Source of the DNA: a virus
Virus record (IMG/VR): IMGVR_UViG_3300046519_000323
Coordinates: 24,040-88,039 of that record
Reading direction: 5' to 3' (one strand)
Length of the DNA: 64,000 nucleotides
The notes under the pieces were generated by a model. The model did not search any database, was not told where the DNA came from, and worked only from the letters and a program-made list of their open reading frames with translations. The translations under genes were made by a program, and so were the position numbers. Within the stretch, counting starts at the first letter, position 1. Every line of letters starts with the position of its first letter. Shown here one piece after another: positions 7,773-50,575 of the stretch.

Positions 7773-8444
7773 TTAGATTTCATCTGATAATAAAGCCGGT
7801 TCAGGCTTTTGAACTGGGTCTTTATGAATATTTAAATTAATTTTCTCAAACCCCTCTATTTGCTCAATCATGTTTAACTCAAGAGCTCTTTGATATTTAG
7901 CAGTCATAGTCTCAAAAGCCCTCACGTGGTTCTCAAGATCATTACTCATTAGAAGAAGCTCAGGATATAACGCACTAAAGGCCATATCATGCTTATGTTT
8001 ATTGATCTCTTTTACTAGATTTTTAGCTGCTACATGGAGCATAGCGCCTTGAAATTTAGGCAGCCTTTCCATTGTCTTTGTTAACACCATGCTGATTTGA
8101 TCGGCAGCTTCTAGGGCTGTACAGCGCATTGTATCGAGTATCAAACCGTTATGTGATGCAGCTAGATCGGGTTCAATTTCATTACTAATACCAAATAGAA
8201 AATCGATACTGCATTTGTATGCTAGACTTATTTTATAAAGGGTTTGAGCTGAAATTGGCTTTGAGCCTTTTTCAATTTCTACAATTCGATTGAGCTGCTT
8301 TTCATTCGAATAACCGAAAATAAGCTTCATCGCTTTAGCCCTTGAGAAACCCGCCCAATCACGCGCACGACGACAATTCTCACCAATCATTCTATTCAGT
8401 TTGTCTTTATCGACCGAATCTCTAAAAGTTGTAATTTCTGACAT
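7773..8444 (-). CDS. XRE-family transcriptional regulator
   Basis: HTH segment NCRRARDWAGFSRAKAMKLIFGYSNEKQLNRIVEIEKGSKPISAQTLYKISLAYKCSIDFLFG. Confidence 0.6.
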   Translation of the reverse strand: MSEITTFRDSVDKDKLNRMIGENCRRARDWAGFSRAKAMKLIFGYSNEKQLNRIVEIEKGSKPISAQTLYKISLAYKCSIDFLFGISNEIEPDLAASHNGLILDTMRCTALEAADQISMVLTKTMERLPKFQGAMLHVAAKNLVKEINKHKHDMAFSALYPELLLMSNDLENHVRAFETMTAKYQRALELNMIEQIEGFEKINLNIHKDPVQKPEPALLSDEI

Positions 8445-8446
8445 GA

Positions 8447-8917
8447 TTAGATACCTAAATACGATTTGATTTGAGCCATTGCATCAGCCACATTTCTGAC
8501 AAAAACGACTTTATTACCCAGCGATTGAAGTAATTTTATTTGAACTTCCTGTTCTGGCCGTAAGCGACCCTTTTCGCTTTTTAATTCAATCCACAACGCA
8601 CTAAATCCCCCACGTGCAACGGGTAGTAATAAATCTGGCGTACCAGCAATAACACCCATTTCTTTAAACTTAGCTGCCTCACCCTTTGAACGTAGCCCGC
8701 CGTTCGGAATGTGACGTATTAATTCTGAAACCCTGTACCCTTGGTATTTCAAAAAGGCGCATTCAGTGATGATTTGTTTTTGAATATCATCCTCTAAAGG
8801 AGATAAACCCATAATTCTGCGTTCTAACGCGGTACGGCGCGTCTTCTTCGTCTTAGAAGTTTTTAGAACAGGAATGTTTGTTTTAAATTTTGGTGATGAT
8901 TTAATGCGGTAAGTCAT
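8447..8917 (-). CDS. VRR-NUC domain nuclease
   Basis: GTPDLLLPVARGGFSALWIELKSEKGRLRPEQ matches the PD-(D/E)xK VRR-NUC core (D...ELK). Confidence 0.75.
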   Translation of the reverse strand: MTYRIKSSPKFKTNIPVLKTSKTKKTRRTALERRIMGLSPLEDDIQKQIITECAFLKYQGYRVSELIRHIPNGGLRSKGEAAKFKEMGVIAGTPDLLLPVARGGFSALWIELKSEKGRLRPEQEVQIKLLQSLGNKVVFVRNVADAMAQIKSYLGI

Positions 8918-9095
8918 TGAACTTAGCCTTTAATTGTTGTTCACAACGTAGAAATGCCTGCTTATTTATTTCCTCTATCGCTTTAACTTGTTTCCGGCTT
9001 CTTCCATGACGGATATGGCCGACTAAGTAATAAATACACACAGTAAATAACATCCCCAATACAAAAATCGTAAGAATTAACGCCGAATTATGCAT
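8901..9095 (-). CDS. small membrane protein
   Basis: 64 aa with one hydrophobic helix (ALILTIFVLGMLFTVCIYYLVG). First gene after the promoter region. Confidence 0.45.
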   Translation of the reverse strand: MHNSALILTIFVLGMLFTVCIYYLVGHIRHGRSRKQVKAIEEINKQAFLRCEQQLKAKFNDLPH

Positions 9096-9120
9096 AAAAA
9101 CTTAACCTATATACATTAAT

Positions 9121-9165
9121 GTATAAATATACTAAATAATTATACATTAATGTATCTATAATAAT
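9121..9165. promoter_or_regulatory. two perfect 14-bp palindromes ATACATTAATGTAT (9121..9134 and 9152..9165), putative operators
   Basis: Identical perfect palindromes 31 bp apart (three helical turns), directly upstream of the 9095 operon start. Confidence 0.6.
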
Positions 9166-9190
9166 ACAGAGCTGTATATAGTTTTAACCA

Positions 9191-9222
9191 AAAAAAAAGC
9201 TACTCGTTTGAGTAGCCTTTTT
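9191..9222. terminator. bidirectional rho-independent terminator
   Basis: A8 - GCTACTC gttt GAGTAGC - C T5. Confidence 0.65.
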
Positions 9223-9349
9223 CTGAAACTGTTACAGCCGCTTCACACTGTGCCCGATCTATCTGGATTGAATAGAAACAAGCCTCCCCGCCTGAGAACC
9301 CAATAATATACACATACGTATCAAAGTCAATACATAATACGTATTATTT

Positions 9350-9799
9350 TTACTTAAAGCGCATCGCTTCTAAAATGGCCGCGGGTACAGATTTATCTGT
9401 TTCCCTCATATCAGGTTCATTTAATACCAGGTGCAAACCTTTAATCGTCGATCTGAGTGTAATGTTTTCAACCTGCAGCGTATTCCTTTCCTCTGTCATC
9501 TTTTCCAGCTGTTTACGTAGCCGTTTAATCTCCTGATCTTTTTCATTACGATATTCGGCTACTGCTCTTTTATACCCTTTTGCTGAAGCAGTTCGCACCT
9601 GTGGGTGCCAATCTAAATCATTTGTGGACCAAGCATAATTAGAAAATAATTTGTAAAGACCATCTTCATGATGCTTGCTGAAATAAAGCACCTCAAAAAA
9701 GAGGAAACTAAAACTCCAAAAGGTTGGCTTATTCAAAAGATTAAATTCATGCTTTTTACGTAAATGTATGCCTTTAAGACCAAAAATAACTAAAAACAT
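9350..9799 (-). CDS. hypothetical coiled-coil protein
   Basis: 149-aa ORF. The C-terminal half is heptad-like (EIKRLRKQLEKMTEERNTLQVENITLRSTIKGL). Confidence 0.45.
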   Translation of the reverse strand: MFLVIFGLKGIHLRKKHEFNLLNKPTFWSFSFLFFEVLYFSKHHEDGLYKLFSNYAWSTNDLDWHPQVRTASAKGYKRAVAEYRNEKDQEIKRLRKQLEKMTEERNTLQVENITLRSTIKGLHLVLNEPDMRETDKSVPAAILEAMRFK

Positions 9800-9802
9800 G
9801 GC

Positions 9803-10183
9803 TTAATCTCGATCTATACAACGCCAGCCATTCATTTGGACTGCTGAATAAGGTACGCAGTCATTAAATGCATAGTATTCATACTTAGGCTTGTTTTGAT
9901 GACTCGATTTTCGTGAACTATATAAAGGTTTTTTTACTGTAACCTTGTTATTTACAGGCTTTGGGGGGACTTTCGTTATCGACCTGAAAGACGTGCTTTT
10001 GAAACTCGAGGCAGTTTGAGTACGACTTAGGCTATTAGCAGCTACGGGACGGCTGACAGGTGATGACCGACTAGCACTAAATGACGCACGTGATGAACTA
10101 ACGGCGCTATTTGCTGCTGTTGAGATAACGGCCAAAGGCATAGAAAAGGCTACAAGTAGACAAAGGCGTGAAACTCTTAACAT
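9803..10183 (-). CDS. secreted Ser-rich protein
   Basis: ORF trimmed to MLRVSRLCLLVAFSMPLAVISTAANSA (signal-peptide-like). The longer start would run through the TGAACA boxes. Confidence 0.45.
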   Translation of the reverse strand: MLRVSRLCLLVAFSMPLAVISTAANSAVSSSRASFSASRSSPVSRPVAANSLSRTQTASSFKSTSFRSITKVPPKPVNNKVTVKKPLYSSRKSSHQNKPKYEYYAFNDCVPYSAVQMNGWRCIDRD

Positions 10184-23357: not shown

Positions 23358-24332
23358 CTAAAAACCTTCAAAGTTGAATAACTGGTCTTCAGGAACCTCA
23401 ACCGTTGGCACCTTCTCAGCTCTTTGATCTGAATTATTTAAGATGAACCGGCTAAAATCTTTAGAAGGTTTTTTAAAAGAGCTGTTTTGAGCAGGTTGGT
23501 TGTAATGATCTGAACTTCCTAAGGCTCTCATACGAGCGAAGTGTGCTCTTTGTCCAGCTGGTGAATGATGGATTTTCAAAAGAAACTTAATCAGATTATT
23601 TAAACGTTGATGATCATTCAAATTTTTATATTGATCATGGTTTGCGTTGAAATCAATAAGGTAGGTATCTAGTTGCTCTTGAGTTTGAATCATTGAGCCT
23701 AAACCTGCCATTTGTAAACGACCAAAAAATATTGGTTCTTTCAGTAGAACCCTGTATTTCTCAAGTAGTTCATTTCTTTTTTCCATGTCCCCTCCCCTAT
23801 TAATCTTATTAAAATTATTACTTCTTAAATCATTGTATTTATTAGTGGTGGGTTCACCGCTAACGGAAAAGCCGTTTTCGGCTTCAGCTTTGTTTTCATC
23901 AATATCATCAAAATTAAAGCCAAGTTGAGCATCAGAAAGCATTGCTTCTTGAGTATCTTCAGAAGCTCGATCTTCAGCTTGAGCTATAATTTTTGTGTCT
24001 ATTGGTGATTCAAAGATTTGATAGACAACTTTGCCAAAAGTGCCATCTTCATTTTTTAACTGAGTACGTTTGATATACCCAGCTTGTTCAAGACGGTTAA
24101 GCATGCCTTGAATTGCATCACGGCCTTCTTTACCCCTTTTTACTAGCGCTTGTATACAAACCCTGTGTTTGTCACCCCACGACAACAATTCAACAAGTAA
24201 ACCTTTATCGGCACGTTTTATATTCGGGTCCCGTAAAAGTTTGTTAGAGAGAACGGTATAAGGGTTTTCTTTGCTGTGCTCAGCACGATAGATGGTCCTT
24301 TGCAGAACATCCAGTACAGCCATATTGGTCAT
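23358..24332 (-). CDS. phage replication initiation / replisome organiser protein (O-like, winged helix)
   Basis: N-terminal winged-helix-like region. Position between the cro-like gene and the DnaC-like loader matches lambdoid O-P organisation. Confidence 0.55.
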   Translation of the reverse strand: MTNMAVLDVLQRTIYRAEHSKENPYTVLSNKLLRDPNIKRADKGLLVELLSWGDKHRVCIQALVKRGKEGRDAIQGMLNRLEQAGYIKRTQLKNEDGTFGKVVYQIFESPIDTKIIAQAEDRASEDTQEAMLSDAQLGFNFDDIDENKAEAENGFSVSGEPTTNKYNDLRSNNFNKINRGGDMEKRNELLEKYRVLLKEPIFFGRLQMAGLGSMIQTQEQLDTYLIDFNANHDQYKNLNDHQRLNNLIKFLLKIHHSPAGQRAHFARMRALGSSDHYNQPAQNSSFKKPSKDFSRFILNNSDQRAEKVPTVEVPEDQLFNFEGF

Positions 24333-24349
24333 TGTTAAATCCTAAAAAA

Positions 24350-24631
24350 TTAGTCCCGAAGAATCTGATCTACTTTTACAGCTCCCTTTGTCAGCTCTTC
24401 TAATGTCCGCGCAACGTTGTACGGAACAGGAACCTCCCCCGATAAATAACGACTAATAGTCCCCTGAGAACAATCAAAAGCTACAGCGGCAGCTTGTTGA
24501 TTACAGAATTGAATACGCACAGTTGTTTGAAACTTACGTAACTTCTTCTGATCTTCAGCATTTAAAGAATCAAATAATTCTTTACGTCGCTGAGCTAATT
24601 CAGCTCGTTTTATGTCTTTCAAGTTTTGCAT
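24350..24631 (-). CDS. Cro/YdaS-like HTH regulator
   Basis: 93 aa with HTH (AVAFDCSQGTISRYLSGEVPVP). Divergent from the cI-like repressor. Confidence 0.65.
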   Translation of the reverse strand: MQNLKDIKRAELAQRRKELFDSLNAEDQKKLRKFQTTVRIQFCNQQAAAVAFDCSQGTISRYLSGEVPVPYNVARTLEELTKGAVKVDQILRD

Positions 24632-39516: not shown

Positions 39517-39720
39517 TCAATTTGATGCTTTATTATTTTCAAGTAATTCTGTTAAAGCTTCCTCAAGTGTTGCGCCGTAGCTGGTATTTAAAGGGCTACC
39601 CGCTTCCACCAATGTAGCCATAAAACCCTCAGTGTCGAGACTTAGGGCAACTTCACAAACTTCATCGGGGTCATTTGCTAAGATTTCACGAATTAACTGA
39701 TCTATTTTATTACTGCTCAT
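39517..39720 (-). CDS. hypothetical acidic protein
   Basis: 67-aa ORF. Confidence 0.45.
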   Translation of the reverse strand: MSSNKIDQLIREILANDPDEVCEVALSLDTEGFMATLVEAGSPLNTSYGATLEEALTELLENNKASN

Positions 39721-39735
39721 AGGTTTTTTACTCTG

Positions 39736-39975
39736 TTAAATGAAGTCGCTTGCATTAAAAGCCTTTTGAACTTTGGCTCTTGCTTGCCACATGGCCCAAC
39801 CATAACTTAAACGTTCAGCTGCTTGCATAACAATAAGTTGATCAGCAAATTGATGTTTTGGCATATAAGCATTTAATGCCGCTATATATTCAACTCGTTC
39901 GAAAAGCAGTTCTGTATTCTGAGTTGCCTCAAAAAGTTCTCTTTCCTTATTCAAGTCAATTTGTTTACTGTTCAT
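39736..39975 (-). CDS. hypothetical protein
   Basis: Trimmed to MNSKQIDLNKE..., which minimises overlap with the upstream gene. Confidence 0.45.
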   Translation of the reverse strand: MNSKQIDLNKERELFEATQNTELLFERVEYIAALNAYMPKHQFADQLIVMQAAERLSYGWAMWQARAKVQKAFNASDFI

Positions 39976-40543
39976 TTTTTGATTTAACCATTTCAGTACC
40001 AGCATTAATTAGAGCTTTAAATGCTTTTAAATACTCTTCAGGATTTCCATAACGAAAGCTAAGGAGCCCCGACATCAGTGCATACCATTGGTCCTGTGTT
40101 CCAAATTTTGGCAACCAGTAACACTTTATGTCTTTATTAAGTTTTTCAATAAAAACATCTTCACCAGCCTCCCATTTACCCTTTTCGCCCGTAGCTAAAA
40201 AATTGAGATAGCGTTGAACAATTACTGAGGATTTATCGGCACAACATGCACTACCCTCAAATTGAGTGCATAGTTTTTCAATATGGTTTTCATAAAATTG
40301 AAAATCTGTGAAAATCTGAACATATTCATCACTAGCGTTTTTTACAGTTTTTACGGCTTCTTCTACCGCGTCTTCAAATTTATAGAGGACCATACAATTA
40401 AAAATAGACGGCGTTTTAAATATTTCAGGATGTTGAATTATATATTTATAAACAGGATGTTCTTGCGCCGCTTTCGATTTGCTCGCTAGTAATCCGCCAA
40501 AAAGATTATTTAACCCTTCTTCGATTTCTGCTGTTTTAACCAT
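39965..40543 (-). CDS. hypothetical protein
   Basis: 192-aa ORF. Confidence 0.5.
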   Translation of the reverse strand: MVKTAEIEEGLNNLFGGLLASKSKAAQEHPVYKYIIQHPEIFKTPSIFNCMVLYKFEDAVEEAVKTVKNASDEYVQIFTDFQFYENHIEKLCTQFEGSACCADKSSVIVQRYLNFLATGEKGKWEAGEDVFIEKLNKDIKCYWLPKFGTQDQWYALMSGLLSFRYGNPEEYLKAFKALINAGTEMVKSKNEQ

Positions 40544-44217: not shown

Positions 44218-46062
44218 ATGACAAACATTAATGATTCTTTAAAATCGATGCGGGAAATCTTTTTAGAATGTAATTGGTCTTATGACCTTGAAGAGTATAA
44301 AAATTATAATTATTCATCTTTATGGACAAGCCTTTTCCAAGCTGCTTTTAAGATGAAAGAAGCAGGTAGAGAAGATCACTATCAGGTTCTAACATTACTC
44401 TCATTTATTGTTTCATTTCGTTTAACTACTGAGCGAATACATGAGCCTTTTAAATATGGTCCTGCAGACATTAATGAGGCTCTTGCTGAATTTAGGCCAG
44501 AAGGACCAATACAAGAAGATTTTGATTTTTTTGAATCTATTTTAGATGATATTGAACACCCTTTTTTAAGAGCACGTTTAGCCGATTTTCTCTGGATTTA
44601 TAAAAAACCGAAAAAACAGATATATGCTCATAAAGCAATAGATAGCTATACAGAATTGCCGATTGATCAGCGTTGGTATGAAGATATAAATCTATGTTGG
44701 GAAAGAGCAATAAGATTAGCTATTCAAATTAAAGATTCTGCCCGACTTGATAAAATTCATACTGAAATGTTCAGTGCTATAAAAAGAGAAATTTCTAATA
44801 CTGATTACATATTTTTAGCCCTCTCCATTGGTCAAATTCTTGATGCGCAGTTACTTGATAAACCTTATAGAAAGGACCTAGCAGAATTATATTTTACACA
44901 GGCTAAATCATTAGAAAGTAATCATTACTATGAAGCAGCACGGCAATATTATGAATTAGCTGCTAAAAAATATTATCAAATTAAGGATATGGATAGCCGA
45001 GGAAATGCATTGTGTGCCATCGCTAAATGTTATGAAAATGAGGCGGTAGGACATAAGCTTAAAATAGTGGCTAGTGATCTATATGAAAAAGCATTAGTTG
45101 CGTATCGAGCAATATCTAAAAAGGATAGAGAGCGATTAGGTTTAGAAGGAAAGATACAGGATATTCAAACTAAAATTATTGAGACTGGTAAAGCTTCCTT
45201 AGAGGATTTCATTTATCTACCTAATGAAAAGTTCGATGATACAGAGATTGTTGAACAAGTTAAAAACCAAATTTCGGGTAAAGCTGACCCTATAAATGCC
45301 TTAGAAACATTTGCCTCATTATGTTCTGAACCAGATTATGCATCGCTAGAGGGTCGGGCAAATGAGTTTTTTGATAAATCTTTCTTTGGTCGGATGTTCG
45401 GTGGAAAACATTATGAGCAAGATGGGCGAGTAATAGCTAAAACCCCGGCAATTAATACGGGCGAAAGTGTTGATAGCCCACAAAATCAAGATGCTTTAAG
45501 AGGGCAAATATTTAGAACTTATACAAATGATGTCTCATTGTTTGTTAAAAGTATTATTATGCCCGCATTAGATCAGCTCACCAGTGAACATCAGATTAAT
45601 AAAGAGCTGTTACGTCATATTTGCAAAGATGCACCAATTATTCCTGAGGACCGTTTAAATTTAATAGTGGAGGCACTTTGGTATGGTTTTGAATATGAAT
45701 TTGCTGCTGCGATTCACCTTGCTTGTCCACAATTAGAAAACATCGTTAGACAACAGTTAAAAGCAAAAGGCGCAATTACAGCAAATCACGATATAAATGG
45801 TATTGTAAATGAAGTGGGCCTAAGCACTTTAATGGAGCGACCTGAAGCACTAGAGGTATTTGGTCAAAATCTTACTTTTGAAATTCAATGTGTATTTACT
45901 GAATCGCTGGGCTTTAATTTAAGAAATAAGGTAGCTCATGGATTATTAAATGATGCTGAAGCATTCGACTCGACACAGTGTGTATATGCTTGGTACATGC
46001 TTTTAAGAATTATATTAAAGAATAGGCGCTTTAAAAAAATAAATTTTGAAGTAAGCGAATGA
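44218..46062 (+). CDS. large helical-repeat protein with C-terminal HEPN-type RNxxxH motif (DUF4209-like)
   Basis: 614 aa. GFNLRNKVAHGLLND (R-N-K-V-A-H encoded at 45922..45939) fits the HEPN Rx4-6H motif. TPR-like segments such as YYEAARQYYELAAKKYYQIKD. Conserved-looking PFLRARLADFLW. Confidence 0.6.
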   Translation: MTNINDSLKSMREIFLECNWSYDLEEYKNYNYSSLWTSLFQAAFKMKEAGREDHYQVLTLLSFIVSFRLTTERIHEPFKYGPADINEALAEFRPEGPIQEDFDFFESILDDIEHPFLRARLADFLWIYKKPKKQIYAHKAIDSYTELPIDQRWYEDINLCWERAIRLAIQIKDSARLDKIHTEMFSAIKREISNTDYIFLALSIGQILDAQLLDKPYRKDLAELYFTQAKSLESNHYYEAARQYYELAAKKYYQIKDMDSRGNALCAIAKCYENEAVGHKLKIVASDLYEKALVAYRAISKKDRERLGLEGKIQDIQTKIIETGKASLEDFIYLPNEKFDDTEIVEQVKNQISGKADPINALETFASLCSEPDYASLEGRANEFFDKSFFGRMFGGKHYEQDGRVIAKTPAINTGESVDSPQNQDALRGQIFRTYTNDVSLFVKSIIMPALDQLTSEHQINKELLRHICKDAPIIPEDRLNLIVEALWYGFEYEFAAAIHLACPQLENIVRQQLKAKGAITANHDINGIVNEVGLSTLMERPEALEVFGQNLTFEIQCVFTESLGFNLRNKVAHGLLNDAEAFDSTQCVYAWYMLLRIILKNRRFKKINFEVSE

Positions 46063-46096: not shown

Positions 46097-46669
46097 TTAA
46101 TATTCTTGGACAGGTTCGCAAATCATTGATAAGAAATAATCAAATAATGCTTCTCTTTGATCTACTTCAAGCTTACTTATGAGTTGCGTTAAAGCCCCAT
46201 CAATTATAAATAGCAACAAGTTTGCATCTTGTAGAGTTGTAGTAGAGTTGTAAGACCTAATCATTTTATGAATTTCATGAACTAACCATTTCCTATAATC
46301 TGTGATTGTTGTGTAAGCTTCAGGGTACTCATTTTTTATCTCAAATATTCCCTTAAATAATAAAAAGTAATCACTCTTAATATCTGCATGAAGGAAAAAA
46401 ACTTGTTTGAGCTGATCTATTACAGATATATCTGTAGATAAATGCGCTGCTGACATGACTTGTACTTTTAATTTTTCGCTTTTAAAAATTAAACAGGTTG
46501 TTATGAGCTTTTCTTTTTTTGGGAAATACTTATAAAGGGTCATTTTTGAAACATCAGATTCATTTGCAATTGTATTTACCCCTGTGTTATGAAAACCAAG
46601 TTCTGTAAAAAAATTGCAAGATGTCTCGATTAAATTAAGTATTTTTTCTGTACGCAGTAAATTTGCCAT
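46097..46669 (-). CDS. TetR-family transcriptional regulator
   Basis: Trimmed to MANLLRTEKILNLIE.... HTH GFHNTGVNTIANESDVSKMTLYKYFPKKEKLI. Confidence 0.8.
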   Translation of the reverse strand: MANLLRTEKILNLIETSCNFFTELGFHNTGVNTIANESDVSKMTLYKYFPKKEKLITTCLIFKSEKLKVQVMSAAHLSTDISVIDQLKQVFFLHADIKSDYFLLFKGIFEIKNEYPEAYTTITDYRKWLVHEIHKMIRSYNSTTTLQDANLLLFIIDGALTQLISKLEVDQREALFDYFLSMICEPVQEY

Positions 46670-46885
46670 ACATCTAACACCTTTAATATGTACCATTAAT
46701 TAATACGAATTGACGTGATGGTCTTTCTAAATATCAAAAAAATGGCATGCAAAAGTTCATTGAGTTGCGATTAAACACCTCAAAACTTAAAAGAAATTTT
46801 AAAAAATAGATTATTCAGAATTGATGACTTTTAATTGATCAACTCTAAAAGAATGTAATTATGTTGTATCTTTATATTGAATATG

Positions 46886-47125
46886 CATGGCGGTAGTCCT
46901 CCATTATTTCTAATAGAAAATCTGCCATGAATTTATAAATTGGTGGCAGAACGAAAGAGGGTTGACAGACTGGGCAAGACACCAGCACACATAAATGTGT
47001 CCCTCTCCCGTCCTACCGCTACGAGAGGGGACGAGAAGCACACACAAAATTAATCCTCAGAAAGAATTAATTCTGATGCTGTCTTGCACAACGAGGTCTG
47101 TCAAAACCTCCTGGCTTGGGGCCAG
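46886..47125. ncRNA. candidate structured RNA (or DNA structure): GC-rich island of nested helices, class unknown
   Basis: About 50% GC by hand count over 46941..47130, against very AT-rich flanks. Complementary pairs: 46886-93/46922-29, 46962-70/47096-104, 46974-81/47080-87, 46999-47007/47023-32, 47048-54/47066-72 and 47111-15/47121-25. Confidence 0.35.
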
Positions 47126-47258
47126 ACTGAGAAGAATAAAGAGAGGTTATAAAACTGTCAATAAACTATATTTTTTTAATTGTAAAAAAAAATTGAAAAT
47201 AAATAAATACTTAACAATTCAAATGCCTGTTAATTGAACGTAACCCTTTTTATTAAAT

Positions 47259-47273
47259 TTGATTAACAATCAA
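47259..47273. promoter_or_regulatory. 15-bp palindrome TTGATTAACAATCAA (candidate TetR-type operator)
   Basis: Perfect inverted repeat with the same TTGATT/AATCAA arms as the umuC-proximal repeat. Confidence 0.4.
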
Positions 47274-47401
47274 ACAGAATTTTTAATTTATTATTTTTAA
47301 ACCTAGACTTATGTATTTTTAACAAGTCTTAATTACTCGCTATTACTGTTTCTACCACCTATCGCTAATATTTGAAATCGTCAAAAACACCCGTTACGAT
47401 T

Positions 47402-47428
47402 AACTTGATTTTGTTACGTAATCAAGTT
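47402..47428. promoter_or_regulatory. inverted repeat AACTTGATT-N9-AATCAAGTT ending 5 nt before the umuC ATG
   Basis: Perfect 9-bp arms. The AACTTGA/TCAAGTT arms recall the published Acinetobacter UmuDAb SOS-box arms (from memory, unverified). Confidence 0.45.
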
Positions 47429-47433
47429 TTATC

Positions 47434-48729
47434 ATGGAAAAAAAGGTTTATGCACTCGCTGATATTAACAACGCTTATTGTAGTTGTGAGCGGGTTTTTA
47501 ACCCTCAGTTACTTGGTAAGCCATTGATTATATTAAGTAATAATGATGGTTGTGCAATAAGTCGCTCAGACGAAGCCAAAAATATAGGCATCAAGATGGG
47601 GGTGCCACTTTTCAAACTTAAAGAAATTATTAAAGAACATAATGTGATTGTTCACTCGAGCAATTTTCCGGTCTATGCGGAAATGTCACGGCGATTTTAT
47701 AATGTTCTTGCTGAGTTTGTTGGTGAAAAAGAATTAGAAATTTATTCAATTGATGAGTGTTTTCTTGATTTAACTACTTTTCAAACATTACACGACTTAA
47801 CTGAATATGCTCGAACGATGAAAAACCAAGTATATCAATACCTTGGTTTACCAATTTGCATCGGAATTGGTCGCTCCAAAACGGAGGCCAAGCTCGCCAA
47901 TTTTATAGCTAAAAAGAATAAACATTACAAAGGTATATGTAATTTATTAGACATCGATTTAACCAATCTTGAATCAATCTATCAATCAATTCCTATCGAA
48001 GAGGTTTGGGGCATAGGTTCACAGCATGCAAAAAAGTTACGTACGCTTGGGTTTAATACTGTTTATGATTTGGCCATAAATGCAAATCCGCAGCACATAC
48101 AACAACTATTTTCAGTCGTAGTTAAACGCACCGTGCTCGAGCTGCAAGGAACAGCTTGTATTGAGCTTGAACATACAAAGCCTGATCAGAAGCAAATCGT
48201 TTGTTCCCGTGCATTTGGCCGACCTGTAATGAATATTGATGATTTAGGTGAAGCCATATCTCTCTACACTCAAATTGCAGTGCGTAGACTAAGGAAGCAG
48301 GGTTTACTTTGCGGTACCATTACAACATTTGCACATTCAAACCCGTTTGATGAAAACGTAAAGTTTTTTAGAAGTACAGCCTCAATTGGATTACCCGTAC
48401 CTACTGATAGCGCTATGCTTTTAGTAAAGGCAGCAATGCATACTCTGCCCAAATTATTTAAAGAAGATATAGCATTTAAAAAATGTGGTGTGTTACTTAC
48501 TGCGTTGGAACCAAAAACAGGTTTTATTCATGACTTACTAGTTGATATTGATTTAATTGAACAACAAGAAAACTTAATGAAAGCATTTGATAAAATTACT
48601 GAGCGTTTTGGAAAGAAAAAAATCGGTATTGGCAGTTGCACCCTACCCGATCGAAACTGGTCAATGAATCAGCAATATAAATCTCAAAACTATTTTAGTT
48701 TAGAGGGTCTACCATTAATTAATAATTAA
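47434..48729 (+). CDS. umuC: Y-family translesion DNA polymerase V catalytic subunit UmuC
   Basis: Collinear with E. coli UmuC: ALADINNAYCSCERVF, LSNNDGC, YSIDECFLDL, VWGIGS, and the C-terminal W-x-M...Y block. Confidence 0.9.
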   Translation: MEKKVYALADINNAYCSCERVFNPQLLGKPLIILSNNDGCAISRSDEAKNIGIKMGVPLFKLKEIIKEHNVIVHSSNFPVYAEMSRRFYNVLAEFVGEKELEIYSIDECFLDLTTFQTLHDLTEYARTMKNQVYQYLGLPICIGIGRSKTEAKLANFIAKKNKHYKGICNLLDIDLTNLESIYQSIPIEEVWGIGSQHAKKLRTLGFNTVYDLAINANPQHIQQLFSVVVKRTVLELQGTACIELEHTKPDQKQIVCSRAFGRPVMNIDDLGEAISLYTQIAVRRLRKQGLLCGTITTFAHSNPFDENVKFFRSTASIGLPVPTDSAMLLVKAAMHTLPKLFKEDIAFKKCGVLLTALEPKTGFIHDLLVDIDLIEQQENLMKAFDKITERFGKKKIGIGSCTLPDRNWSMNQQYKSQNYFSLEGLPLINN

Positions 48730-48841
48730 TTAAAACCAAAAGTATTATTCAAGTTTCATATTTAATAAAAATAACAAAGCTATTTTGAGCGGTTTGATAT
48801 TATGCACCTTTGCATATTAACAATAACGAGACTTTCTTATA

Positions 48842-49381
48842 ATGGCTACGCCGTATATTACGATTGGCTGCCCCACAACTGGCGGCGGTCAAGTGATTTC
48901 AGGGAATAACATGTTCCTGATTGAAGGCATTCCCGTTGCTTGTGTTGGTGACAAAGCTACCTGCCCCACTCATAAAATTGTAGCAACGATTGTATCTGGT
49001 GATCCGTACATGCAGATTTTTGGTAAATCTGCAGCACGTGTAAATGATTCCCTTTCTTGTGGTTGTAAACTCCTACCAAAGCAAAATTTAGTTGTTCAAG
49101 ATAACGGCGGTGGTGCGGCGCAAAGTTCTCAAGCCAATAATGCACAAGATAGCTTTGTGCCTCAAACCGATGAACATGGGCTCAAATATCAACTTAAAGA
49201 CCAAGAGACTGGTAAACCTCTCGCTCAACAATACTTTAAATTGAAAGGTCCAGACGGTACCGAGATTGAAGGATTTACAGATAAAAGCGGTTATACAGAA
49301 CTAATAAAAACAGGTACAGAAGCAAAAGAAGTCGATTTAACTACTTTTGATCTTTCGAAACCGATGGCAGAGTGGAATTAA
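48842..49381 (+). CDS. PAAR-domain protein with ~85-aa C-terminal extension
   Basis: GIPVACVGDKATCPTH and GKSAARVNDSLSCGC are PAAR-repeat-like (AxxGD/ND...C, SAAR). Gly/Gln linker, then an extra domain. Confidence 0.7.
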   Translation: MATPYITIGCPTTGGGQVISGNNMFLIEGIPVACVGDKATCPTHKIVATIVSGDPYMQIFGKSAARVNDSLSCGCKLLPKQNLVVQDNGGGAAQSSQANNAQDSFVPQTDEHGLKYQLKDQETGKPLAQQYFKLKGPDGTEIEGFTDKSGYTELIKTGTEAKEVDLTTFDLSKPMAEWN

Positions 49382-49383
49382 GA

Positions 49384-50082
49384 ATGGCAGATAGTAATTT
49401 AGGAAACCCGTATAGACGTCATATACCGGGCTCATCCCCTGCATGGGACGCTTACCCTCAAGAGCAAAAGGTTTGTGATATTACCGAACCCCTTTGTAAC
49501 TCTCATATTAAAATTAGAAATTACTCGATGGTAAGACCCTATAATTTTATGATGAGCGCGCATCACTGGGCTCAAGTAGCAGACAATACTATTGAATTAC
49601 TTATGGCGGTACGCTTTGGGATGGAATGGGATGTTAATAAACTTCCTGATAGTAATATCGCTGACCCTGCTTTTCACACTAGAATGTATATTAAGTTCCA
49701 TAATTATTTATTAAAACATTCGGTCAAAGAGATTCCCCGTATTGTTGGAGAATTTCAGAGTACGGCCTTTAAAGTACGCTTTCTAAGTACGTTTGCGGTC
49801 GATGAATTATTAGAATTACGTAATTTAAGTAAGTTCGATCAGGGCAAAGAAGTTTACTCAAAAATTGAAGATTTGAAAGATACTTTTTCAAAACTCGATG
49901 TAGCCTCAGCTTCCGAAGATTTAGCCTTGTTGCAAATGAATGACGGGCCTTTGCATATAAACAGAGACATGTTTAAAAAAGTCTTTAATCAAGATTTCAA
50001 CCCTAAAATGATTCAGATCATGAAACAAAATAGAGAATATCCAGGAGACCCGACTAATGTTATCAGTAAAGGCTTCTATTAA
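49384..50082 (+). CDS. hypothetical protein (candidate cargo/effector of the PAAR protein)
   Basis: Trimmed to MADSNLGNPY..., starting 2 nt after the PAAR stop. No motif recognised. Confidence 0.5.
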   Translation: MADSNLGNPYRRHIPGSSPAWDAYPQEQKVCDITEPLCNSHIKIRNYSMVRPYNFMMSAHHWAQVADNTIELLMAVRFGMEWDVNKLPDSNIADPAFHTRMYIKFHNYLLKHSVKEIPRIVGEFQSTAFKVRFLSTFAVDELLELRNLSKFDQGKEVYSKIEDLKDTFSKLDVASASEDLALLQMNDGPLHINRDMFKKVFNQDFNPKMIQIMKQNREYPGDPTNVISKGFY

Positions 50083-50086
50083 GTAC

Positions 50087-50545
50087 ATGAAACCACTTCT
50101 AATAACCTTAGTGTTGATGGTTAGTGGTTGTGCAAATACACAAGTAAACAACGATAAAGAAGCCTTAAAAAATGCAACACGTGGCGCTGTTGGCATGGTA
50201 TTGCTTGATCATCATATGTATAAGAATGCTATAGCGAGCGGTAATAATGCAGTTACTCAGTCAATGCTTGCGTCAACTTTATTGAAAGCGGGTATTTTAA
50301 AAACTTATGAGAAAGAGGTAGGTGACGGTTATACGATTGAGTCAAGCTTACCGTTAGCAAAGTTAAATAAGCTTTGTTGGATGGGTAAATTTGTTCAGCA
50401 CTATAAAAACGATATACCCGCAGAAGCCTTGCCAGCATATAAAGATACACTTGTATGGCTAGATTCAAAGCAAGCCAATTTGTTAAAGAAACTCAATGAG
50501 TCATATAAGAAAGATGAACTCGGTGATGATGATTGCCGTAAATAG
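50087..50545 (+). CDS. lipoprotein (candidate immunity/exclusion protein)
   Basis: Trimmed to MKPLLITLVLMVSGCANTQ, with lipobox L-M-V-S-G-C. Starts 4 nt after the upstream stop. Confidence 0.65.
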   Translation: MKPLLITLVLMVSGCANTQVNNDKEALKNATRGAVGMVLLDHHMYKNAIASGNNAVTQSMLASTLLKAGILKTYEKEVGDGYTIESSLPLAKLNKLCWMGKFVQHYKNDIPAEALPAYKDTLVWLDSKQANLLKKLNESYKKDELGDDDCRK

Positions 50546-50575
50546 TAAAAAGCCCTCACTTAGAGGGCTTTTTTA
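50546..50575. terminator. bidirectional rho-independent terminator closing the accessory island
   Basis: AAAAAGCCCTC actta GAGGGCTTTTTT. Confidence 0.8.

Follow-up and report, generated by a model that had tools for sequence, protein, structure and literature searches.

The three-gene cassette described here lies in a 64,000-nucleotide (nt) stretch of viral DNA (IMG/VR virus record IMGVR_UViG_3300046519_000323, positions 24,040 to 88,039; hereafter the window, numbered from its first letter), and its closest described counterparts are type VI secretion system (T6SS) units in which an orphan extended PAAR gene is accompanied by a cargo effector gene and an immunity gene, sometimes on a phage. 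In Acinetobacter baylyi, Tpe1 (ACIAD0053) and Tpi1 (ACIAD0054), encoded downstream of the PAAR-2 gene, are described as an experimentally validated T6SS pair that acts in the periplasm (PMC6838775, PMC6899460). In Vibrio cholerae, the Aux3 element carries a cargo effector that depends on its PAAR protein together with a gene for periplasmic immunity, and the effector, TseH, is described as a peptidoglycan-degrading hydrolase (PMC7721734). The extended PAAR proteins of Acinetobacter, corresponding to Shneider class 2, were catalogued as 'PAAR-2a' (Repizo 2019, PMC6838775) and as groups A-L (Lewis 2019, PMC6833914). PAAR genes are absent from seven of eight T6SS-negative Acinetobacter species (PMC6838775), and what the extension is for 'remains to be elucidated' (PMC6833914). 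In its main text neither survey mentions prophages, the two protein families that follow the PAAR gene in the window or their co-variation with it.

The cassette comprises three co-oriented plus-strand genes at 48842..50545, downstream of a umuC-like gene. A preliminary description of this DNA had offered two readings, namely a mobile T6SS module of spike, cargo and immunity genes, or a PAAR protein that caps the spike of the phage itself. The comparative evidence presented below, that is, the apparent autonomy of the trio, the co-variation of its parts, orphan copies of the putative immunity gene and the decay of gene 2, favours the first of these. We consider it likely that the cassette is an accessory T6SS module, carried as a 'moron' on a P1-like Acinetobacter phage or phage-plasmid, and not a part of the virion.

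Organization of the cassette and its PAAR protein

The genes of the cassette, and the parts of the first gene, are as follows (lengths in amino acids, aa; TTR, transthyretin).

48842..49381, plus strand: gene 1, PAAR protein, 179 aa
48842..49105, plus strand: PAAR domain of gene 1 (residues 1-88), a conserved module that would dock on the spike
49106..49168, plus strand: linker of gene 1 (residues 89-109), rich in Gly, Ser and Gln, sequence DNGGGAAQSSQANNAQ
49169..49381, plus strand: C-terminal domain of gene 1 (residues 110-179 and the stop codon), predicted beta-sandwich of TTR/CnaB type, proposed cargo adaptor
49384..50082, plus strand: gene 2, 232 aa, candidate cargo effector, beginning after a gap of 2 nt
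50057..50545 or 50087..50545, plus strand: gene 3, lipoprotein, candidate periplasm-facing immunity protein

The assignment of gene 1 to the PAAR proteins, made earlier from its repeats, was borne out by a match to Pfam PAAR_motif (PF05488) over residues 9-78, which scores 77 bits where the cutoff is 27 (E 1.3e-21). Weak sequence matches in the PDB were to PAAR proteins of the T6SS and of extracellular contractile injection systems (eCIS), namely Tre23, 4jiv and SalCis10. The layout is that of Shneider class 2, since the match begins at residue 9, leaving no N-terminal extension, and about 100 further residues follow it. We aligned 46 homologues, all from Acinetobacter, and found approximately 88 N-terminal residues that are almost invariant, then a linker that varies in both length and sequence, and then a C-terminal domain of about 70 residues in which a TDxxGxT motif is invariant. 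The PAAR domain is 76-94% identical to that of most Acinetobacter homologues irrespective of cargo, and it is 92% identical to that of the A. baylyi PAAR-2 protein P0114 (locus L008). Elsewhere in the PAAR family the extension is a different one, of about 190 residues, and the proteins that have it form a 279-aa class.

The Gly/Gln linker and the extra domain that had been noticed at first sight are both real features of the protein. AlphaFold gave no reliable model of the PAAR half, and the linker is likewise predicted with low confidence (predicted local distance difference test, pLDDT, <50 for both), and residues ~110-179 form a beta-rich domain with a pLDDT of 75-89. The top PDB match of this domain in Foldseek was 6sjl_A, the VgrG1 chain of the VgrG1–Tle1 complex of enteroaggregative Escherichia coli (EAEC), at E 7e-4 and prob 0.97 with a TM score of ~0.27; the next matches were to CnaB, SpyCatcher and transthyretin folds (E 0.02-0.5). 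These matches agree with a TTR/CnaB-like fold without being strong. We propose that the C-terminal domain is a TTR/CnaB-like cargo adaptor that would set the specificity of the PAAR protein.

Distribution of the trio

Megablast of the cassette and 13.5 kilobases (kb) of the phage against phage and plasmid collections returned almost nothing, and the genomic context was therefore drawn from protein-level look-ups. Every gene 2 homologue with a visible upstream gene directly follows a PAAR gene (the window and 11 further locus types) and is itself followed by at least one lipoprotein gene. The copy in L023, at the end of its record, and the sampled copies of other gene 2 members also stand behind a PAAR gene. 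The sites, all in Acinetobacter, include the following.

L003-L007 (A. baumannii), ends of integrated prophages: integrase, SRAP, umuD, umuC, PAAR, gene 2 and gene 3, followed by DarA/ddrB-ParB genes
L013 (A. dispersus), prophage: integrase, umuDC and cassette in the order of L003-L007, with tape-measure, GP38 and DUF1833 genes
L010 and L011, chromosome: between folB/folK/ubiB/thiF and lipase genes
L012, chromosome: after murB
L015, chromosome: between a TetR gene and cstA/efp
L018 and L020, chromosome: between tmk and nadB
L021-L023, chromosome: downstream of an OprD-family porin gene
L014: adjoining RexA and Lamassu-like genes
L025 (plasmid pGFJ2): between tail genes and on the strand opposite to them, with a second PAAR gene preceding the cassette

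The tape-measure, GP38 and DUF1833 genes indicate that the L013 prophage is siphovirus-like. At the five chromosomal sites no phage gene was found within the 5-10 kb inspected on each side. The plasmid pGFJ2 of A. soli (78.6 kb, circular, NZ_CP016898.1) is a relative of the element in the window, with a spike 53% identical and LPD1 and TetR matches. Because it occurs at chromosomal, defence-island, prophage and plasmid sites, the trio is, as judged from these comparisons, autonomous, and it passes among chromosomes, plasmids and phages that are not related to one another.

Some further observations concern the PAAR genes of these loci. In pGFJ2 (7968..10096) two PAAR genes stand in tandem (147 and 186 aa) before the gene 2 homologue and the lipoprotein gene, a layout that resembles the PAAR-5/PAAR-2 pair described for A. 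baylyi (PMC6838775). In A. vivianii (L012, 11346..11597) a short PAAR gene of 83 aa lies just downstream of the chromosomal trio. Locus L001 was not used as evidence of a phage context, as the records labelled 'phage MD-2021a' include contigs of 328-378 kb with T6SS genes. Two of these records (CAKLQF020000001.1 and CAKLQH020000001.1, 'Acinetobacter phage MD-2021a') resemble bacterial assemblies and carry a 'putative type VI secretion protein'; both the phage label and the annotation of the PAAR gene as 'Pyocin large subunit' are unreliable.

Co-variation of the C-terminal domain with the downstream genes

Percent identities were compared over the 55 pairs that 11 loci form. For the C-terminal domain of gene 1 the identity follows that of gene 2 closely (Pearson 0.96, Spearman 0.84) and that of gene 3 nearly as well (Pearson 0.90), and genes 2 and 3 follow each other (r 0.88); the pairs are not phylogenetically independent, and these coefficients are therefore descriptive. 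The identity of the PAAR domain is correlated neither with that of gene 2 nor with that of gene 3 (0.18 and 0.27, respectively), and the C-terminal domain does not track the PAAR domain to which it is attached (r 0.27). Three comparisons with the window illustrate this pattern.

L001: PAAR domain 93%, C-terminal domain 35%, gene 2 33%
L021: PAAR domain 93%, C-terminal domain 35%, gene 2 23%
pGFJ2: PAAR domain 30%, C-terminal domain 38%, gene 2 40-42%

In pGFJ2, then, a different PAAR domain is joined to the same families of C-terminal domain, gene 2 and gene 3. At least three subtypes of gene 2 could be distinguished, each with its own lipoprotein subtype downstream.

Lipoprotein genes are also found apart from their usual partners. 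L001 and L013 carry an additional lipoprotein copy of the L021 type downstream, L021 itself carries a copy of the window type (42% identical) without a gene 2 of that type, and L010 has three copies in tandem. In L019 (3085..5489) an insertion sequence with an rve-family transposase truncates gene 2, of which 170 of 202 codons are left, and the lipoprotein gene is intact. Two further downstream genes, of 167 aa in L021 and 211 aa in L018, resemble the lipoproteins weakly. Taken together, the co-variation, the orphan lipoproteins and the decay of gene 2 look like the usual marks of polymorphic effector–immunity loci.

The candidate cargo and the lipoprotein

That gene 2 has no recognised motif, so that its effector family would be a new one, was already suspected from the sequence, and it withstood a broad set of searches. 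Among the PHROGs gene 2 matches only PHROG 24557, an uncharacterised family, and Pfam, NCBIfam and PADLOC yielded nothing for it. When 21 diverse members were compared with Pfam one by one, at E values up to 10, only scattered noise was obtained, and a profile of the family gave only insignificant matches against PDB sequences. When HMMER was run exhaustively with the family profile over 1.84 billion representative proteins, it recovered only 25 relatives and no distant annotated ones; the homologues that bear a name are all hypothetical proteins of Acinetobacter, and in the sequence collection one member of the family alone accounts for entries in 841 index blocks. AlphaFold, given 26 sequences, returned a mostly helical but poor model (pLDDT 60), for which Foldseek found nothing below E 1.9.

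Conservation within the family is nevertheless sharp at single positions. Residues C38, P52, Y53, F55, W62, E71, D83, Y102, F105, N186 and F201 are invariant among diverse members, and C31, R77, E81 and H98 nearly so. The N-terminus is hydrophilic and, by inspection, has no signal peptide. A lysozyme-like nature was considered from the spacing of invariant Glu and Asp residues and the all-helical prediction; it found no supporting evidence and we do not claim it. We regard gene 2 as a candidate cargo effector belonging to an uncharacterised, mostly helical family that appears restricted to Acinetobacter.

Gene 3 has the clean lipobox reported previously (LMVSGC), and its lipobox Cys is invariant in 10 homologues. 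Two more Cys residues, C97 and C150 in the numbering of the 152-aa form, are invariant in the same set, and this pattern fits a disulfide-bonded protein facing the periplasm. The family is unannotated and was found only in Acinetobacter; the searches assigned it to no known family, and weak matches to omptin and TrsH were discarded as noise. Its features make gene 3 a candidate periplasm-facing immunity protein.

The start of gene 3 is ambiguous. From the ATG at 50087 the protein has 152 aa and is separated from gene 2 by 4 nt, and from the in-frame ATG at 50057 it has 162 aa and shares 26 nt with the end of gene 2. The upstream start is probably the correct one, because the N-terminus of the long form (MLSVK...) is like those of homologues (MFVKK..., MSVNR...) and because gene callers likewise pick the longer, overlapping form in related loci. 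Of the tight spacing originally described, the gap of 2 nt between genes 1 and 2 stands, and the gap of 4 nt before gene 3 holds only for the less favoured start.

Evaluation of the T6SS reading

Several points weigh against the proposal that the cassette is an accessory T6SS module with gene 2 as its cargo. Neither a toxin fold nor a toxin motif can be recognised in gene 2, and its model is poor; the structural match of the C-terminal domain is modest and comes from a model whose N-terminal half is unreliable; and the identity pairs share phylogenetic history. Lewis et al. (PMC6833914) argued that delivery of specific effectors by the extended PAAR proteins of A. baumannii is unlikely, and in their work strain AB307-0294 showed no PAAR-dependent toxicity. 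Tpe1 itself is only conditionally toxic (PMC6899460).

The missing toxin motif and fold, together with the result in AB307-0294, would also suit a cassette that is linked to the T6SS but delivers no new toxin, gene 2 being an adaptor, chaperone or structural accessory that modulates firing and gene 3 having some other role in the envelope. Chaperones can indeed be required for PAAR-dependent delivery (work cited in PMC6833914). We consider this explanation unlikely, as the Pfam adaptor families DUF4123, DUF1795 and DUF2169 do not match gene 2, and no other toxin candidate was seen in the examined cassettes, which consist of PAAR genes, the gene 2 homologue and downstream genes that, where compared, are mostly lipoprotein paralogues (the 167-aa gene of L021 and the 211-aa gene of L018 were not scanned against any family library). 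Moreover, arrays of lipoprotein genes, non-cognate copies, and the loss of gene 2 with retention of the lipoprotein fit immunity and would be hard to explain for the partner of a chaperone.

The neighbourhood of some copies raises the question of a role outside the T6SS. Defence genes adjoin the cassette in the window (a PDC-S39 candidate) and in L014 (RexA and Lamassu-like genes), and phage morons are often defence genes; the trio could thus serve in defence, exclusion or addiction inside the lysogen, for example as an envelope toxin released on infection, with the PAAR protein co-opted. This seems very improbable to us. None of the three proteins matched PADLOC-DB v2 at E 0.01 or better, and many copies lie between housekeeping genes, outside defence islands. 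The PAAR domain is nearly identical to that of the A. baylyi locus, whose layout is the one reported for Tpe1/Tpi1, and PAAR genes are missing from seven of eight T6SS-negative Acinetobacter species (PMC6838775).

Signals flanking the cassette

The features that border the cassette are listed below.

47434..48729, plus strand: umuC-like gene (Pfam IMS, IMS_C, DUF4113), separated from gene 1 by 112 nt
48795..48803, plus strand: extended -10-like element TGaTATTAT upstream of gene 1, found by alignment of homologous upstream regions
48801..48816, no strand assigned: palindrome TATGCA-N4-TGCATA, overlapping the -10 element
50547..50573, both strands: intrinsic terminator with an 11-bp stem flanked by an A-run and a T-run

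The three Pfam matches confirm that a umuC gene precedes the cassette. Within the gap that follows it, the core TGnTAT..T is invariant or nearly so across seven aligned upstream regions of homologous PAAR cassettes, from which we infer that the extended -10-like element is the putative promoter of the cassette. Five of the seven PAAR cassette promoters (L001, L003, L008, L012 and L013) share a second motif, ACAGTAT-N1-2-(G/T)TCT(G/A), some 10 nt upstream of the -10 element. Its sequence is in part palindromic (ACAG..CTGT), and it may be an operator; neither the window nor L010 has it.

The palindrome in the upstream gap, to which attention had been drawn before, is present, and we give it no weight. 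Perfect inverted repeats with 6-nt arms and spacers of 0-10 nt were counted in the window, and occur 0.68 times per 100 nt, so that about 0.8 are expected in a gap of 112 nt; moreover, the palindrome is not conserved upstream of six homologous cassettes. On both grounds it was rejected as an operator and is probably due to chance.

The strong terminator at the end of the cassette was confirmed by its 11-bp stem and T-run, with a hairpin of -16 kcal/mol (z -3.7), although it was not among the terminators listed by a simple consensus scan. Beyond it lies a convergent gene for a 1028-aa polyvalent protein, and it is this position between convergent genes that makes us call it bidirectional.

The surrounding phage element and its spike

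The window encodes a portal, a tail tube, a baseplate protein, a gpV-like spike and a PmgG-like head protein. It also encodes polyvalent proteins (DarA_N/LPD3 and LPD1/InPase), a CI-like repressor, a serine recombinase, a ParA-like partition protein and proteins of Erf-like, Rep-like and DnaC-like type. No tyrosine integrase was seen among the scanned open reading frames of the window, and no T6SS core genes were found in it. A C4 antisense RNA of the P1/P7 immI type is present at 46939..47023 on the minus strand (Rfam RF01695, 56.4 bits with a gathering score of 45, E 2e-9); it lies directly upstream of a minus-strand TetR gene, an unusual partner, and fits a P1-like element. The ParA-like, Rep-like, PmgG-like and DarA_N/LPD genes, the C4 RNA and the lack of a visible tyrosine integrase make a P1-like Acinetobacter phage-plasmid plausible, a phage-plasmid having been assumed in the preliminary description; this is short of proof, as the ends of the replicon were not seen.

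The cassette belongs to a plus-strand accessory island, opposite in orientation to the tail and polyvalent-protein genes, which also holds the PDC-S39 candidate, the minus-strand TetR gene and umuC. Two further features are needed here.

44218..46062, plus strand: PDC-S39 defence candidate, 614 aa (PADLOC, full-length, E 3.5e-198; Pfam DUF7380 and DUF4209)
58270..58782, minus strand: spike, 170 aa, baseplate-spike homologue (phrog_11, E 3e-14)

The TetR gene (46097..46696, minus strand) is 39% identical (E 1e-50) to the TetR gene of L015 (8170..8724), which sits divergently upstream of a chromosomal cassette copy, and it is 41-44% identical to TetR/AcrR genes of Acinetobacter plasmids. Plasmid-borne TetR regulators repress the T6SS in A. 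baumannii, and the TetR protein of the window could be a regulator of the cassette or of the T6SS. The umuC gene has no umuD (Peptidase_S24) partner in the window (46700..48729); in the prophages L003, L005 and L013, umuD and umuC immediately precede the cassette.

The gpV-like spike, already recognised in the preliminary description and confirmed by its phrog_11 match, is the structure that the PAAR protein would cap if it belonged to the virion. The element is a contractile-tailed phage with such a spike, gene 1 is the sole PAAR gene of the window (a second one was searched for and none was found), the related pGFJ2 also has a PAAR cassette and there it adjoins tail genes, and PAAR tips occur in some phages and eCIS, such as SalCis10. 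With no competing tip gene in the window, the case against capping rests on other points. The spike ends in ...GIEFDTHKHG and thus has an HxH motif of its own, kept as HYH in pGFJ2; the corresponding stretch of 9zd7, a phage tail-tip protein of solved structure, reads GIPFHTHKHG, in a match that is not significant overall (E 0.09). In spikes of the P2 gpV type the HxH motif holds iron in a self-sharpened apex, which offers no flat platform for a PAAR protein, and we take the HxH motif of the window spike to be such an iron-binding apex.

The position of the cassette points in the same direction. It is not part of the tail module, being some 8 kb away from the spike gene and on the plus strand versus the minus strand of the tail genes, in an island with its own promoter-like element and terminator. 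The trio occurs at at least five chromosomal sites without a phage gene nearby, and in L013 it is carried by a siphovirus-like prophage, that is, it is not tied to a contractile tail. The myophage vB_AbaM_ABMM1 has a homologous spike and no gene 1 homologue at E 1e-8 or better. The PAAR domain of L008, 92% identical to that of gene 1, comes from a phage-free A. baylyi locus with the arrangement reported for Tpe1/Tpi1. Since the spike has its own HxH end, the cassette forms an opposite-strand island and the trio also exists free of phages, it is highly improbable that the PAAR protein caps the spike, with gene 2 ejected into the infected cell and the lipoprotein protecting lysogens by superinfection exclusion.

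After the spike gene of the window come the portal gene and separate polyvalent-protein genes (DarA_N/LPD3 and LPD1/InPase), and in vB_AbaM_ABMM1 (L024, 11995..22350) the spike homologue, 44% identical, forms the N-terminus of a 3451-aa protein.

Proposed mechanism and significance

As an accessory T6SS module, the cassette would act as follows. The PAAR domain of gene 1 would cap the tip of a VgrG trimer of the host, and the flexible Gly-rich linker would tether the small TTR/CnaB-like beta-sandwich to it. This C-terminal domain would bind the gene 2 protein non-covalently, and gene 2 would be fired as cargo into neighbouring cells. Because gene 2 has no export signal and its putative antidote faces the periplasm, it would most likely act in the periplasm of the target, on the envelope, with E71, E81, D83 and H98 as candidate catalytic residues. 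Gene 3, a disulfide-stabilised lipoprotein, would neutralise gene 2 in the producer and its kin, and lysogens would therefore gain a new weapon together with protection against the same weapon. What was observed directly are the identities of the domains, the order and distribution of the genes, the co-variation, and the arrayed and decayed copies of the lipoprotein gene and gene 2. The docking on VgrG, the binding of gene 2 by the C-terminal domain, its toxicity and compartment of action, and the immunity are the conjectural steps of this model.

A bolder proposal can be put forward tentatively, and we would not bet on it at even chances: gene 2 may found a new class of T6SS toxin, with a fold and an action on the envelope not matched by any characterised effector, and with delivery by a PAAR-tethered TTR-like adaptor, and temperate phages and phage-plasmids of Acinetobacter may routinely shuttle such units, often beside umuDC.

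If this bolder proposal holds, lysogeny would re-arm the T6SS of the host and penalise cells that lose or lack the element, so that the phage would gain from interbacterial killing; the addiction to the plasmid put forward in the preliminary description is conjectural too. The cassette is of interest with regard to A. baumannii, a priority hospital pathogen in which the T6SS shapes competition and gene exchange. Extended PAAR proteins, left unexplained in two surveys (PMC6833914, PMC6838775), would gain a concrete role, with a conserved head, an exchangeable adaptor and a matched toxin and antidote. A unit exchanged among unrelated phages, a phage-plasmid family and chromosomal islands also bears on how lysogeny affects interbacterial fitness. 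Should gene 2 prove toxic, a new toxin and a new immunity fold would be at hand; otherwise the puzzle of the extended PAAR proteins stays.

Comparison with known systems

Gene 1 fits the catalogued extended PAAR class in its orphan location, in its length (172-280 aa in the class) and in having no annotated C-terminal domain (PMC6838775, PMC6833914). The loci L021-L023 match the neighbourhood PGN1 of the former survey, which has an OprD-family porin anchor and a class 2a PAAR protein of about 181 aa and is listed without a toxin. The novelty claimed for the locus at the outset is accordingly narrower than it seemed: the gene 2 family is uncharacterised, and the PAAR class and its neighbourhoods are already on record in these surveys.

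The likeness to PAAR-2 (ACIAD0052), Tpe1 and Tpi1 of A. baylyi ADP1 runs through P0114 and is one of layout. P0114 and gene 1 are alike in size (~180 aa) and in consisting of a PAAR domain, a Gly-rich linker and a small beta domain with TDxxGxT. The gene order is also alike, with a PAAR gene followed by a signal-less protein of about 225 aa and an exported protein of about 150 aa. The C-terminal domain of P0114, in contrast, is only 29% identical to that of gene 1, and downstream of it stand an unrelated HExxH protein (IHEMAHVW) and then a signal-peptide protein. The HExxH motif is missing from gene 2, which shows no detectable similarity to that protein, aligns with it over just 18 residues, and is thus not of the Tpe1 type. 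Compared with Tpe1/Tpi1, the cargo of the window is unrelated, the immunity candidate is a lipoprotein of another family, and the cassette is borne by a phage rather than by the chromosome.

The EAEC VgrG1–Tle1 complex (6sjl) is like gene 1 as modelled in that a small beta-sandwich, which in gene 1 is predicted, is placed on a spike component, and there the spike protein is bound to its effector. The TTR domain of EAEC is fused to VgrG and not to a PAAR protein, and binding of gene 2 in the window is a prediction.

Tip PAAR proteins of phages and eCIS (the T4 gp5.4 type and SalCis10) belong to the same fold family, with a weak match of gene 1 to SalCis10. Those of the T4 gp5.4 type have about 100 aa, are encoded in the baseplate module and are essential for the particle. 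Gene 1, in contrast, is extended by a further domain, is part of an accessory island and belongs to a module that is also found free of phages.

Temperate phages of Burkholderia also encode PAAR proteins, which are distant in sequence, about 32% identical to gene 1 over 85% of its length, including part of the C-terminal region. Examples are KL3 gp51 (39580..40032), phi644-2 gp28 (23932..24411) and a protein of phiBt-TXDOH, some of them annotated as 'T6SS PAAR-repeat protein'. To judge from this similarity, phages that infect other genera may likewise carry extended PAAR morons.

The Aux3 element of V. cholerae is like the cassette in that a three-gene unit, PAAR2–TseH–TsiH, is carried by a myovirus-like or prophage-like mobile element (PMC7721734). 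It differs in genus and PAAR lineage, in its integration by a tyrosine recombinase as against the plasmid-like element here, and in its cargo, gene 2 being without a known domain. In conclusion, the cassette appears to be of a known kind, to which the present comparisons add the assignment of an uncharacterised and widespread Acinetobacter family as candidate cargo, with a matching lipoprotein family, evidence suggesting that the PAAR C-terminal domain is a specificity adaptor, and recurrent carriage beside umuDC on unrelated prophages and a phage-plasmid family.

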